A stretch of 56,024 nt of DNA. Source: Patescibacteria group bacterium (GTDB lineage Bacteria; Patescibacteriota; Minisyncoccia; Phycocordibacterales; SBAW01). This document shows, in pieces, positions 30,545 through 48,961 of the stretch. The stretch is taken from contig JAGWLV010000002.1 of NCBI GenBank assembly GCA_028864875.1, positions 1 through 56,024 of the forward strand. Reading direction: 5' to 3'. Below the pieces are notes generated by a model. It searched no databases, had not been told where the DNA came from, and was given only the letters and a program-made list of their open reading frames with translations. The number at the start of each line of letters is the position of its first letter. Position 1 is the first letter of the stretch. The translations under genes were made by a program, and so were the position numbers.

Positions 30545-31120
30545 ATGCAAGACATCCGTACGTTTTTGATGATGGGCCGCCCCGGCGCGGGCAAAGGCAC
30601 ACAAGCAAAGTTACTTGCAAAAAAACTCGGCGCCGAAGTCTACTCCTCGGGCAACCGTCTGCGCGAAATGGCCAAGGGCCACGGCTTCGTGGCGCGGAAA
30701 ATAAAGGACGTCATCGACAGCGGCGGCCTCCTGCCGTCGTGGCTCTCCTCGCACCTGTTTGAAGGGGCGCTCTTGATGCTTGAGCCCGAGGAGCTCGTCG
30801 TGTTCGAGGGGGCGTGTCGCCGGCTTGAAGAGGCGCGGGCTTTCGACCGCGTGGTTGCCTGGCTCGAGCGCCCCTACAAAGCGGTGTTTATCAATGTGTC
30901 CGACGAGGAATCCGAGAAGCGCCTCAATGCACGGCGGGCGGTAGAAAGGCGTGCCGACGACGCTTCAGACACCGTCATAGAGCGCCTTGCCGAGTATGAA
31001 GAAAACACCCGCCCGGCGGTCGAGTTTTTGCGCGAGCGCGGCGTCCTTGTTGAAATAGACGGCCACAAAAGTGTCGAGGACGTGCACAAAGCGATACTCA
31101 GTGCCCTCCGCCTTCAATGA
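30545..31120 (+). CDS. adk: Adenylate kinase
   Basis: 191 aa with P-loop MGRPGAGKGTQAKLLA and a short lid lacking Cys. Confidence 0.92.
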   Translation: MQDIRTFLMMGRPGAGKGTQAKLLAKKLGAEVYSSGNRLREMAKGHGFVARKIKDVIDSGGLLPSWLSSHLFEGALLMLEPEELVVFEGACRRLEEARAFDRVVAWLERPYKAVFINVSDEESEKRLNARRAVERRADDASDTVIERLAEYEENTRPAVEFLRERGVLVEIDGHKSVEDVHKAILSALRLQ

Positions 31121-31881
31121 TTGTTACTACTCCACAAGAGCGCAAAGACCTGCACGCCGCGGGCATCATACTTTCGAGCATTCTCGAAGATCTCTCCGCG
31201 CAAGTGCGCGAGGGGACGAGCGCCGCGGCGCTCGACCTCTTTGCCGAGTCGGCCATACGCACGCACGGCGCCACGCCCGCGTTCCTCGGCTACACGCCGG
31301 CGGACGCGCCGGGGCCCTACCCGGCCGCGCTGTGCGTCTCTATCAATGACGAAATAGTGCATGGCCTCCCGACCGAGCACAAGATTGTACGCAAGGGCGA
31401 CATCGTAAAGCTCGACCTGGGGCTCTCCTACAACGGCGTGTTCGTCGACGCGGCGCGCAGCGTGTGCGCAGGCTCCTGCGACGCGCGCGGAAGAGAGCTC
31501 GTTGCGGCGACCGTCGAGGCGCTGCGCGGCGGCATCGCTGCGGCAAAGGCGGGCGGGACGACGGAAGACATCGGCGCGGCGATAGGGCGCGTCGCGCGCA
31601 AGTACAAACTCGCCGTCGTACACGAGCTCGGCGGCCACAGCTTGGGGCGCACACCCCACGAGCCGCCGTTTGTGCCCAACGTCGGGCGGGAAGGGGGGGG
31701 GGATGTTTTGAAAGAAGGACTGGTGCTCGCCATTGAACCGATTTTTGCAGAAAAAAGCGGGGAAATGTTTTTGGCGCCGGACGGGTGGACGTACAAAACG
31801 CGCGACCGCTCGCGCGCCGCGCAGACCGAAGCGACCATCATCGTCGGCAAGGATTCCGCCGACATTTTGACCCCGTTTTAG
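31117..31881 (+). CDS. map: Methionine aminopeptidase type I
   Basis: 254 aa; NDEIVHGLP, GDIVKLDLG, HELGGHSLG, LAIEPIF. ATGA overlap with adk. Confidence 0.93.
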   Translation: MIVTTPQERKDLHAAGIILSSILEDLSAQVREGTSAAALDLFAESAIRTHGATPAFLGYTPADAPGPYPAALCVSINDEIVHGLPTEHKIVRKGDIVKLDLGLSYNGVFVDAARSVCAGSCDARGRELVAATVEALRGGIAAAKAGGTTEDIGAAIGRVARKYKLAVVHELGGHSLGRTPHEPPFVPNVGREGGGDVLKEGLVLAIEPIFAEKSGEMFLAPDGWTYKTRDRSRAAQTEATIIVGKDSADILTPF

Positions 31882-31918
31882 TTTGCAAAACGGACTCAAA
31901 AACGGTAGAGTCTGTGGG

Positions 31919-32503
31919 ATGAAAATAAAAGAAGAGCGGACATTCGTACTCGTCAAACCCGACGGCGTACGCAAGGGGCTTATTGGTGAAATTATCAAGC
32001 GCTTCGAGCAGCGCGACATGAAAATTGTGGCGCTTGAAATGTTTACGCCCACGCGCGCGATGATTGACCAGCACTATCCCAAAGACAAGGCATGGGTTAC
32101 CCGCCTGGGGGAGAAGACACTCAACACCTTTACCAAGTACGGTATCAGCGCCAAAAAGGAGTATGGCACCGACGACCCGGCAAAAATCGGTCCACAAGTA
32201 CGCACGTGGCTTGTCGATTTTATGGTCTCGGCCCCGCTCGTCAAAATGGTGGTGCAGGGGGTCCACGCGGTCGATATGGTCCGCAAGATTGCAGGACCCA
32301 CCATGCCGTATCTCGCCGACATGGGCACTATCCGCGGCGACTACTCCAACGACAGCCCTGCGATAGCCAACCTCGAAAAGCGCCCCGTGTACAACCTCGT
32401 CCACGCTTCCGAGACCCCCGAAGAGGCCAAGCACGAAATAGCGCACTGGTTCGGCAAGGACGCGAAAATCGTCTCCTACAAGCGCTTTGGAGTTGACGAG
32501 TAA
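31919..32503 (+). CDS. ndk: Nucleoside diphosphate kinase family protein with internal insertions
   Basis: ERTFVLVKPDGVRKGLIGEIIKRFE, LVDFMVSAP, NLVHASETPEEAKHEIAHWF (catalytic His context). There is a ~40-aa insertion after QHYP. Start trimmed to ATG 31919. Confidence 0.8.
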   Translation: MKIKEERTFVLVKPDGVRKGLIGEIIKRFEQRDMKIVALEMFTPTRAMIDQHYPKDKAWVTRLGEKTLNTFTKYGISAKKEYGTDDPAKIGPQVRTWLVDFMVSAPLVKMVVQGVHAVDMVRKIAGPTMPYLADMGTIRGDYSNDSPAIANLEKRPVYNLVHASETPEEAKHEIAHWFGKDAKIVSYKRFGVDE

Positions 32504-32565
32504 CACACAATAATTCTGCAATCTGTTATTCACAGGATTTTTCGCCCCGCGAGAATATAATTATT

Positions 32566-32712
32566 GGTGGACTACGGAGGCAATGTCCTTAACAAATTTA
32601 AGGGAGCCCGCAGTTCCTCGGCCGTAAAGGCCGAAGACAAGGCACCCACCTGGCAATAGCCAGGACACGCTTCCGAAGTCCACCAAAGAGTCCCGCTTCT
32701 GCGGGATTTTTT
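32566..32712 (+). ncRNA. Candidate structured ncRNA (~145 nt) with its own promoter and terminator; identity unresolved
   Basis: TATAAT lies at 32556..32561. The closing helix GGACUACGGAGGC/GCUUCCGAAGUCC forms 12 of 13 pairs. Internal hairpins are CCTTAA-caaat-TTAAGG, CGGCC-gtaaa-GGCCG and CCTGGC-aata-GCCAGG. The terminator is TCCCGC-ttct-GCGGGA followed by TTTTTT (32691..32712). Confidence 0.55.
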
Positions 32713-32736
32713 GATGGTTGTGGTATCATCGGGGGC

Positions 32737-33120
32737 GTGCCGATTTTTTTTAATGCGCTCGCACTTCTCTCTGCACTCACCGTCGGCTTTTTGTACTGGC
32801 ACGGCGTGCAAGACGCGCTGTTTTGGAAGATAGGAACCTACTACATTATACTCCACGTGCTGGGCGGGTTTGCGGTCGGCAGCTGGGTTTCGGCCGGGCT
32901 CTGGCGTCTGCGCGCGGCGCGCGACAAGGCACCCCTGCGTATCATGCTCGCCGCGCTCGCGGTCGGGGTGGCCTGGGAGATATTTGAATTTATAACAGGG
33001 CTCAGCTGGCCCGACCCCCACTACCTGACCAAAACAACCGGCGACCTGCTGTGCGACGTGACCGGCGGCCTTGTTGCGGCGCTCCTCTACGGCGCGCTGC
33101 GCTCGTACTTGTATGAGTAA
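32737..33120 (+). CDS. Membrane protein, function unknown
   Basis: 127 aa, 4 TM, GTG start. A TGGTATCAT -10-like box ends 8 nt upstream. Confidence 0.6.
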   Translation: MPIFFNALALLSALTVGFLYWHGVQDALFWKIGTYYIILHVLGGFAVGSWVSAGLWRLRAARDKAPLRIMLAALAVGVAWEIFEFITGLSWPDPHYLTKTTGDLLCDVTGGLVAALLYGALRSYLYE

Positions 33121-34468
33121 AATTTATTTCTACGGCGGCGCGGGCATGGTGACGGGGAGCAATTTTCTGCTTGAGACCCCTGAAACAAAATTGTTGATCG
33201 ATTGCGGGCTCCTCCAGGGGGCTCACACGTGCGACGCAAGCAACTGGAGCGCATTTGCGTACAATCTGCACACCATTAAGACGCTTGTCGTGACGCACGC
33301 GCACATCGACCACATAGGCCGCATCCCACGGCTCGTCAAAGAGGGTTTCCGCGGCACCATCTACTCGACTGCGGCGACCAAAGCGCTTGCGGAGCCGCTT
33401 TTGCACGACGCGCTTGAGTTGCTCGAGGCCGACGCACGCCGCTGCAAAGAAGAGCCGCTCTATTCAAAAGACCACGTCGCGCAGGCACTGCGGCAGTGGA
33501 AAGGACTCACCTATCACGAGGTGGTGGAGTTGCAGGGATGCACGCTCGAGCTGCTGAATTCCGGACACATTTTGGGTGCGAGTATGGTCAAGATTACGAG
33601 GGGCACAAAGAGCATCGTCTTTACCGGCGATCTGGGGCCGGGGACTTCGCCGCTCCTGTCGCCCTGCGAGGACGTCGCGGGTGCGCAGTTTTTGGTGATG
33701 GAGAGCGTGTACGGGGACCGCGTGCGCCAAAAGGGGGAGGACCGGCTCGGCGAGCTGGAAGATTTGATAGAGGGCGCCGCGCAAAAAAACGGCACTCTGC
33801 TCATCCCCGCCTTTTCGACCGAGCGCACGCAGGACCTCCTGTTTGAAATCCGCGACCTCATGATGCGCAAAAAAGTACCTTCAATGCCGGTGTATGTCGA
33901 CTCGCCGCTTGCAGAAGCCATTACGCACGCGTTTGTACGCGAGCCGGACTTTTTTGCGCCCGAAATCGCCGCGCGTATCAAGGCGGGGGAGAACATTTTT
34001 GCGTTTCCGGAGCTCCGGTTTGTCGAGGATGTCGAGGAATCAAAAAAAATAAACGGGCACACAGGGCCCAAGGTTATTCTTGCGGGTTCCGGCATGAGCA
34101 ACGGCGGGCGCGTGCAGGGTCACGAACTCTCGGTATTGCCCGACCCGAACTCGACACTACTCATTGTCGGCTACCAGGCGCCCGGCTCTATCGGCCGCAG
34201 GCTCGCCGAGGGAGCCTCGTATGTCGACATACGCGGGGAGCGTGTGCCCGTGCGCGCACAGGTCGCCGCGCTCTACGGCTACAGTGCGCACATGGACTCC
34301 GAAGCTCTGCTCGAGTTCGTCAACAAGGCCGCGCGCGACATCCGACACGTGTTTGTTGTCGAAGGCGAGCCTGCGGCGGCGGGCTTTTTGACTCAGCGCG
34401 TCCGCGACTACCTCGGGGTCAATGCCACCGCACCCGAGGCGGGAGATATCGCAGAAATTGATTTATAA
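33113..34468 (+). CDS. Metallo-beta-lactamase / beta-CASP family RNA-metabolising nuclease
   Basis: MSKIYFYGGAGMVTGSNFLLE, VVTHAHIDHIGRIP (HxHxDH), ESVYGDR, AHMD. Start trimmed to ATG 33113. Confidence 0.85.
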   Translation: MSKIYFYGGAGMVTGSNFLLETPETKLLIDCGLLQGAHTCDASNWSAFAYNLHTIKTLVVTHAHIDHIGRIPRLVKEGFRGTIYSTAATKALAEPLLHDALELLEADARRCKEEPLYSKDHVAQALRQWKGLTYHEVVELQGCTLELLNSGHILGASMVKITRGTKSIVFTGDLGPGTSPLLSPCEDVAGAQFLVMESVYGDRVRQKGEDRLGELEDLIEGAAQKNGTLLIPAFSTERTQDLLFEIRDLMMRKKVPSMPVYVDSPLAEAITHAFVREPDFFAPEIAARIKAGENIFAFPELRFVEDVEESKKINGHTGPKVILAGSGMSNGGRVQGHELSVLPDPNSTLLIVGYQAPGSIGRRLAEGASYVDIRGERVPVRAQVAALYGYSAHMDSEALLEFVNKAARDIRHVFVVEGEPAAAGFLTQRVRDYLGVNATAPEAGDIAEIDL

Positions 34469-39610: not shown

Positions 39611-39644
39611 CAAAAGCGCCCTTTGTGCGCTTTTGTTTTCTTTG

Positions 39645-40017
39645 TGGAGATGGGGGGAATCGAACCCCCGTGCAACAGTTGATGCAGTGCGCGTCTACAA
39701 GACGTAGTGAGCTTTCAGTTCTCGACGTGGTGCATCAAAAGCGCACAAAAGCGCATCACGTTAGAGCTCTGGTCTTAGGCGGGGTAGTGAGCAGCTACTC
39801 CGCAGCATCCCGGTGGTATAACACCCGGCTCTTCCTCACAGGAGTTGGAAGAGGGGTGACGACTTACGCCTTAGCGTAGGCGAAGTCGAAATCATTCGCC
39901 GCGAAAAACGGCGATGCAACTGATTTGGCAGTTATAGGTTGGAGCAGTTTTAAGAAGTGCTCCAGTTCTGCCTCGCAGCGCACAAGCATGCATCTGCTGT
40001 CTAGGCCTGTCATCCCC
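39645..40017 (-). ncRNA. ssrA: tmRNA (SsrA)
   Basis: The 5' GGGGAUGACAGG pairs with the 3' ...GGUUCGAUUCCCCCCAUCUCCA, with G3:U in the acceptor stem and discriminator A. An internal frame ends ...GCGGCGAAUGAUUUCGACUUCGCCUACGCUAAGGCGUAA (..AANDFDFAYAKA*). It lies immediately downstream of smpB. CCA is not encoded. Confidence 0.9.
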
Positions 40018-44515: not shown

Positions 44516-44587
44516 GCGCTCGTAGCTCAATGGTAGAGCAGTCGACTTATACTCGACCGGTTGTAGGTTCGAGTCCTACCGGGCGCA
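44516..44587 (+). tRNA. tRNA with anticodon UAU (Ile, AUA-decoding)
   Basis: Hand-folded cloverleaf. Acceptor GCGCUCG/CGGGCGC, D arm GCUC-AAUGGUA-GAGC, anticodon arm GUCGA-CUUAUAC-UCGAC, variable region CGGUU, T arm GUAGG-UUCGAGU-CCUAC, discriminator A. No CCA is encoded. Confidence 0.8.
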
Positions 44588-48874: not shown

Positions 48875-48961
48875 GGAGGCGTGGCAGAGCGGTCGAATGC
48901 AGCACACTGCTAATGTGTTGTCCGGGAAACTGGACCGGAGGTTCGAATCCTCCCGCCTCCG
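48875..48961 (+). tRNA. tRNA-Ser (anticodon GCU)
   Basis: Acceptor GGAGGCG/CGCCUCC, 3-bp D stem, anticodon loop CUGCUAA, long variable arm, T arm GGAGG-UUCGAAU-CCUCC, discriminator G. Confidence 0.88.

Follow-up and report, generated by a model that had tools for sequence, protein, structure and literature searches.

The window, by which we mean the whole 56,024-nt stretch of DNA analysed here, belongs to a 588-kb CPR/Patescibacteria assembly of 57 contigs that is 92.7% complete. It carries a short element between ndk and a small membrane-protein gene, ahead of a gene for a CPSF-like MBL/beta-CASP ribonuclease (Table 1). The original prediction had described this element as a free-standing structured RNA running from promoter to terminator, and this description was borne out: the consensus TATAAT and the canonical terminator (TCCCGC-TTCT-GCGGGA plus TTTTTT) are both present where they had been placed, and a promoter and a terminator are found at the locus and in most of its relatives. 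Including the terminator, the transcript would measure about 147 nt, its ends being placed solely by the promoter and the terminator. The accompanying statement that no ORF fits the region was nearly right, as ORFs of 31 aa (+ strand) and of 41, 60 and 149 aa (- strand) overlap the element. We rejected a protein-coding reading, since only short or antisense ORFs overlap and the substitutions in the helices are compensatory, as in an RNA.

Table 1 Coordinates of the probable 6S RNA, its parts and other features of the window
Feature	Position	Strand	Remark
ndk	31919..32503	+	Pfam NDK, E = 2.3e-35; context, not part of the RNA
-10 hexamer TATAAT	32556..32561	+	Upstream of the RNA core
Core of the probable compact 6S RNA	32566..32685	+	120 nt, first to last closing-stem base
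Closing stem P1	32566-32573 + 32575-32581 with 32669-32675 + 32677-32684	+	8 + 7 pairs, one A/A mismatch
P2 (UGUCCU:AGGACA)	32584-32589 with 32662-32667	+	6 bp
5' bubble strand (UAACAAAUUUAA)	32590-32601	+	12 nt, A/U-rich
Terminal (upstream) arm	32602-32647	+	46 nt; GGG-A-GCC...GGC-A-CCC base, internal loop, apical hairpin CGGCC-GUAAA-GGCCG
3' bubble strand (ACCUGGCAAUAGCC)	32648-32661	+	14 nt; contains a small hairpin
3' strands of P2 and P1	32662-32667 + 32669-32684	+	
A-rich linker	32685-32690	+	Can pair with the terminator U-tract
Intrinsic terminator TCCCGC-TTCT-GCGGGA + TTTTTT	32691..32706 + 32707..32712	+	
Small membrane-protein gene	32737-33120		Downstream of the RNA
CPSF-like MBL/beta-CASP ribonuclease gene	33113..34468	+	Pfam Beta-Casp, Lactamase_B, RMMBL; context, not part of the RNA
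tmRNA	39642-40017	-	98.3 bits
Two tRNAs	44516-44587, 48875-48961	+	

The order map-ndk-RNA-(small membrane protein)-beta-CASP RNase is conserved across the order, as seen in the window (31117-34468) and in 56 related loci. Among these loci, 50 have ndk upstream and 51 have the beta-CASP RNase gene downstream, each time on the strand of the RNA. The immediate downstream gene varies among genomes, the small membrane-protein gene being present in only 13 of the 56. Among MBL/beta-CASP proteins, the ribonuclease most resembles the aCPSF1 and Cas14 types and not RNase J, and its NCBIfam matches stay below their cut-offs. Ndk itself has 194 aa, and its Pfam NDK match is split into two stretches.

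No recognisable -35 element precedes the hexamer in the window, which leaves a -10-only promoter. In many relatives, a -35 element TTGACG is formed by the last ndk codons (...GVDE stop), and the window promoter is without a good -35 because about 45 nt are inserted there relative to the relatives. The window does hold a TTGACG (32492-32497), set apart from the -10 box by these roughly 45 extra bases, which include a weak hairpin (32539-32555). A TAnnnT hexamer was found in 53 of the 56 related loci (TATAAT or TATACT in 35), and in 47 loci its end is separated from the first paired G by 5-8 nt. At the other end, a hairpin followed by a T-run stands directly 3' of the RNA in nearly all of the 57 loci when judged by eye, and a crude automatic terminator test was positive in 39 of 56. 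In most loci, the A-rich tract before the terminator hairpin (of the type ACAAAGA) is complementary to the later U-tract (TTTTTTGT; 32685-32715 in the window), a pairing that lengthens the terminator stem as in bidirectional terminators.

The RNA is structured beyond chance. Together with its terminator it folds at -77.7 kcal/mol, compared with an average of -41.7 ± 3.8 kcal/mol for 200 dinucleotide shuffles, none of which folds as well (z = -9.6); the reverse strand folds less well than the RNA (z = -7.0). An end-to-end helix of 13 positions with 12 pairs had been proposed, and the helix exists in a longer form, with 15 pairs around the single mismatch of P1. Three perfect internal hairpins had also been proposed, and all are present on the + strand. 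Two of them, CGGCC-GTAAA-GGCCG and CCTGGC-AATA-GCCAGG, are kept in relatives, either by covariation or by a changed sequence that still folds; the third, CCTTAA-CAAAT-TTAAGG, is not. We therefore do not count this last hairpin (32587-32603) as part of the family fold, since it is private to this genome and the family keeps an open bubble strand there. If formed, this hairpin would block access to the 5' bubble strand and to some of the GGG at the foot of the terminal arm, and so might modulate the activity of this copy of the RNA.

In relatives, the 5' bubble strand measures 14-21 nt by model-column count and keeps a CUUAA motif at the P2 edge. The 3' bubble of the free RNA holds a 3-bp hairpin in the predicted fold. 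When the 5' strand of P2 was barred from pairing, constrained folding extended this hairpin to the six pairs CCUGGC:GCCAGG (32649-32654 with 32659-32664). The extended hairpin takes AGG from the 3' strand of P2, and P2 and the extended hairpin are mutually exclusive. By constrained folding, the two states are nearly isoenergetic (-60.9 kcal/mol with P2 versus -60.3 kcal/mol with the extended hairpin).

A blastn search against 60 relatives returned homologues in about 10 genomes, all of the same genus. We aligned eleven of these homologues (alignment A1) and used this alignment as the basis of a covariance model, R1. The alignment shows a covarying closing stem and the invariant blocks GGGAG and CACCCACCU, and every sequence is closely flanked by a promoter on its 5' side and a terminator on its 3' side. 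R1 matches 79 of 80 genus genomes at one locus each, including all 60 of the high-quality ones, and 91 of 151 genomes of the order, where the matches are 125-167 nt long. A broader model, R2, was based on an alignment of 57 sequences from which reverse-strand matches had been left out (A4); the window RNA scores 117.2 bits with R1 and 103.3 bits with R2. Homologues and covariation show that the structure is conserved: in A4, 95.2% of the pair cells hold standard pairs and 21 of 27 modelled pairs show compensatory changes, although these covariation counts favour the structure because the alignment was fitted to the model. As a control, we slid the 3' partners by 1-3 columns, upon which only 38-50% of the cells were paired and the covariation score fell from 0.61 to at most 0.11.

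Compensatory changes were seen in all 12 modelled pairs of P1 (helices 1 and 2, 57 sequences), in two of the three pairs of the GUC/GAC core of P2 (helix 3) and in four of the five pairs of the 3'-bubble hairpin (helix 5). At the base of the terminal arm (helix 4), the GGG/CCC pairs do not vary, and covariation sets in with the pairs that follow. The terminal arm itself, which lies outside the model, folds as a hairpin in 56 of 57 relatives; the GGG/CCC base closes it (in one of these relatives as GG/CC), whereas its sequence and its length (44-78 nt) vary. Single-copy, equipped with its own promoter and terminator and endowed with a covarying conserved fold, the element is an RNA gene.

6S RNA is a widespread, near-universal bacterial RNA and a global transcription regulator, acting as an open-promoter mimic that restrains RNA polymerase. 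No Rfam family reaches its gathering score at the locus, and the best full-length match is the 6S/SsrS family, RF00013. In a sensitive Rfam scan of 301 nt, RF00013 was the only full-length structural match, aligning model positions 1-187 over 32566-32685 with 19.5 bits (E = 0.044). The gathering score of the family is 46.4 bits, so that by the Rfam criterion the window RNA is not a member, and this cut-off is reached by no genome of the genus (40 searched) or of the order (151 searched). When the whole genome was searched with RF00013 at E <= 10, the window locus was the sole match. In the alignment to the model, GGGAGCC and GGCACCCACCUGG, which are invariant or nearly so in the family described here, fall on upper-case consensus positions. 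The most conserved model positions are occupied by GGG-A-GCC, GGC-A-CCC-ACCUGG and the GUCC/GGAC pair; the last of these, in P2, is aligned to the 4-bp gccc/gggc helix beside the bubble, and the A/U-rich stretch is aligned to the 16-nt 5' bubble of RF00013. The block CACCCACCU, nearly invariant in relatives, corresponds to the best-conserved block of RF00013.

Weak RF00013 matches were also obtained in other genomes, five among the 40 genus genomes (14-25 bits) and five among the 151 order genomes (20-27 bits). All 10 coincide with R1 loci and none lies elsewhere, while the chance of a random match falling on a given 130-nt locus in a 0.6-0.7-Mb genome is about 2 in 10,000. When ten 3-kb loci were scanned together with cmscan, the 6S match was recovered in one only, because the filters tighten with more sequence; we do not take this as evidence against the relationship. 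In an even sample of the phylum, RF00013 exceeded its cut-off in 7 of 151 genomes, with up to 73.2 bits and lengths of 143-197 nt, and some Patescibacteria therefore possess recognisable 6S RNAs. Of 20 RF00013 loci taken from this sample, 12 are matched by R1 and 13 by R2 at the same place, and four of the loci so matched (L099, L101, L102 and L105) lie above the RF00013 cut-off. Sequence and structure both tie the family to the RNAs of other Patescibacteria that Rfam identifies as 6S.

The layout is likewise that of a 6S rod, with P1 of 15 bp, P2 of 6 bp, a 12/14-nt bubble and a 46-nt terminal arm, and with covariation. Other conserved rod- or cross-shaped RNAs occur in these genomes, for example upstream of ruvB, and a 6S-like shape alone is therefore not diagnostic. 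We considered the ruvB-upstream RNA (G000:C30:22803-22966, outside the window) as a rival 6S candidate and rejected it, as neither RF00013 nor R2 matches it. This RNA is conserved-looking, about 164 nt long and folds at -80 kcal/mol with a closing stem of about 30 bp; it lies on the strand opposite ruvB and is preceded on that strand by a promoter-like site (TTGACA...TATGAT). Taken on its sequence and its predicted fold, the window element is most probably a compact, divergent 6S RNA (ssrS) gene. Another housekeeping small RNA had been among the options of the original prediction, and this option fits; 6S RNA, now the best reading, had been named there only among the families to scan.

With E. 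coli-type 6S RNA, the window RNA shares the rod with closing stem, central bubble and terminal arm, a 3'-bubble hairpin that competes with the P2 3' strand, and the single-copy gene with its own promoter and terminator. At the bubble borders it keeps the GGG-A-GC...GC-A-CCC-ACCU motif of RF00013, and the 4-bp gccc/gggc helix adjoining the bubble is shared as well. The two differ mainly in size: the core of the window RNA measures about 120 nt compared with about 185 nt in RF00013 (6S RNAs usually have about 150-200 nt), and both of its arms are shorter. Relative to the RF00013 consensus, it is without about 11 positions of the distal closing stem, a 6-bp helix on the bubble side and the greater part of the apical arm (about 28 nt), and its bubble is 12/14 nt instead of 16/13 nt. 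In E. coli, ssrS is linked to ygfA, which encodes 5-formyltetrahydrofolate cyclo-ligase; unlike E. coli ssrS, the window RNA shows no linkage to a gene for this enzyme.

The Patescibacteria RF00013 loci (L099-L118; 143-197 nt, 31-73 bits) resemble the window RNA in their core motifs, in the size of the bubble, in the 3'-bubble hairpin and in the terminal arm. Their core runs from an A/U-rich 5' bubble through GGGAGC... and ...GCACCCACCURG to a hairpin, which is followed by the P2 3' strand; the main difference is the closing stem, which is longer by roughly 25-35 nt overall. Most of them lie in other gene neighbourhoods, and one member of the class (35.9 bits) is found directly after ndk.

Ms1 of Actinobacteria is about 300 nt long. 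It has a 6S-like rod shape in common with the window RNA and associates with RNA polymerase; it binds the core polymerase, and we detected no sequence similarity between the two RNAs (PMC9130861 for Ms1). The sensitive Rfam scan of the locus contained no Ms1-type family at E <= 10. The engineered B. subtilis RNAs 6S78 and 6S82cp likewise combine a central bubble with short helical arms (PMC8876501). These are artificial, entirely without a '-35-like' arm and bind about 10-fold more weakly, whereas the window RNA keeps a terminal arm of 46 nt.

Three other readings of the conserved RNA have to be weighed. The first is a 6S-descended or 6S-like housekeeping-type RNA with a different job, for instance binding of the core polymerase as in Ms1 or partnership with the beta-CASP RNase. 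The score below the Rfam cut-off, the truncation of both arms and the very strict synteny with the CPSF-like beta-CASP RNase (51 of 56 loci) would all fit such an RNA. Yet the blocks bordering the 6S bubble are invariant and recur in Patescibacteria RNAs above the RF00013 cut-off, the bistable switch between P2 and the hairpin suits the release cycle of 6S RNA, and no other 6S candidate was detected in the genome; on balance, we regard a different job as quite unlikely.

The second reading, a cis-acting 5' leader or riboswitch for the membrane-protein gene at 32737 or for the beta-CASP RNase gene, had been raised in the original prediction and does not hold up well. The downstream genes do lie on the same strand, and the linkage to the RNase gene is conserved. 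There are also weak Rfam matches to leader-type or terminator-containing families, but these cover the terminator only: the rimP leader reaches 21 bits against a cut-off of 47 in the terminator region, and the terminator parts of RsmY and istR match the window terminator on the + strand. The Rfam scans of the window and of the locus returned no riboswitch family. Against a leader stand the RNA's own terminator, with the hairpin and T-run that follow the RNA in nearly all loci by eye and in over two-thirds by the crude test, and a separate, fresh promoter-like TACAAT after the terminator in many loci. Moreover, the next gene varies, the membrane-protein gene being confined to the minority of loci given above, the terminator lies outside the conserved fold without alternative pairing to it, and related RNAs occur elsewhere in the phylum in other contexts. 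We therefore judge a leader function to be highly improbable.

The third reading, a divergent SRP (4.5S) RNA, had headed the list of the original prediction and has next to no probability: the locus is single-copy and universal in the genus, no SRP RNA was detected elsewhere in the genome and the terminal arm contains the string AAGGCA, but the locus has no match to any SRP family at E <= 10, sequence and length vary freely in its apical loop and helix whereas domain IV is the most conserved part of SRP RNA, and the protein partners Ffh and FtsY were not found.

The lack of SRP components extends well beyond the locus. RF00169 and RF01854 find no SRP RNA in the genome, in 41 genus genomes or in 151 order genomes. 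The genome itself yielded no match to PF02978 (SRP_SPB, the Ffh M domain) or PF00448 (SRP54, the GTPase type to which Ffh and FtsY belong), and a tblastn search of it with E. coli Ffh (NC_000913) gave a best E of 0.68. PF02978 was found in none of 151 order genomes and in none of the 151 genomes of the phylum sample, and PF00448 gave one weak match among the latter 151. The same Rfam pipeline finds tmRNA and RNase P RNA in this genome. The whole SRP system appears to be missing from it, and many CPR bacteria lack SRP subunits (Moreira et al. 2021, PMC8080830). SRP loss in CPR is thus already known; its phylum-wide extent is striking.

In the window, the only Rfam matches above the gathering score are a tmRNA and two tRNAs (Table 1). 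These ordinary matches indicate that Rfam models work in this lineage. Elsewhere in the genome, RNase P RNA (RF00010, cut-off 100) has two matches, at G000:C18:1003-1308 (+) with 92.4 bits and at G000:C42:3656-3949 (-) with 87.3 bits, which could reflect a duplication, strain heterogeneity or a split assembly.

Returning to the 6S reading, we infer polymerase binding, product-RNA synthesis and release from what is established for E. coli SsrS and B. subtilis 6S-1 (PMC8876501). By this analogy, the rod with its open central bubble would mimic an open promoter and occupy the active-site cleft of the housekeeping sigma-RNA polymerase holoenzyme. P2 would correspond to the 'downstream duplex' and serve as part of the predicted product-RNA template: upon a rise in NTPs, the polymerase would copy the 5' bubble strand and P2, with a predicted start near U32590, and would yield a product RNA such as 5'-AAGGACAUUGCC. 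This product would then unzip P2 (UGUCCU:AGGACA), the AGG set free in this way would join the 3'-bubble hairpin and complete CCUGGC:GCCAGG, and the RNA would be released in its refolded state. In E. coli-type 6S RNA, a hairpin composed of the 3' bubble and the P2 3' strand drives release after product-RNA synthesis has disrupted P2 (PMC8876501), and the P2/hairpin switch predicted for the window RNA matches this release hairpin. B. subtilis 6S-1 RNAs truncated to 78-82 nt retain holoenzyme binding, at an affinity about 10-fold lower, and also serve as templates for product RNA and undergo release (PMC8876501), and a natural 6S RNA of 120 nt is therefore mechanistically plausible. As the terminal arm is short (46 nt), the '-35-like' contact may be weak or missing.

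B. subtilis RNase J1 matures or degrades 6S-1 and 6S-2 (PMC10578484). The strict gene order described above could reflect a comparable functional pair, in which the neighbouring beta-CASP RNase matures or degrades a mini 6S RNA and the roughly 120-nt RNA is a natural minimal 6S that acts on the polymerase of ultra-small bacteria without a full '-35-like' arm; we offer this as a speculative idea that is rather unlikely to prove right.

What is new here is modest, namely what appears from sequence comparison to be a compact, order-wide form of 6S RNA, about 120 nt long in the genus and about 125-165 nt in the order. A literature search found no paper describing 6S RNA in Patescibacteria, the candidate phyla radiation or Parcubacteria. 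The order-wide form scores far below the Rfam threshold, which is why standard Rfam/Infernal annotation misses the gene and leaves it unannotated across a large CPR order. The remedy would be a dedicated model or additional seed sequences, and a dedicated model would also stop other conserved rod-shaped RNAs from being taken for 6S. If the 6S reading is correct, the roughly 120-nt RNA would be a naturally occurring equivalent of the engineered minimal 6S RNAs and could serve structural work as a compact model. For the organisms themselves, it would mean that ultra-small, host-dependent bacteria which have apparently lost SRP have kept 6S RNA, a pattern that would inform how they manage growth arrest and outgrowth.
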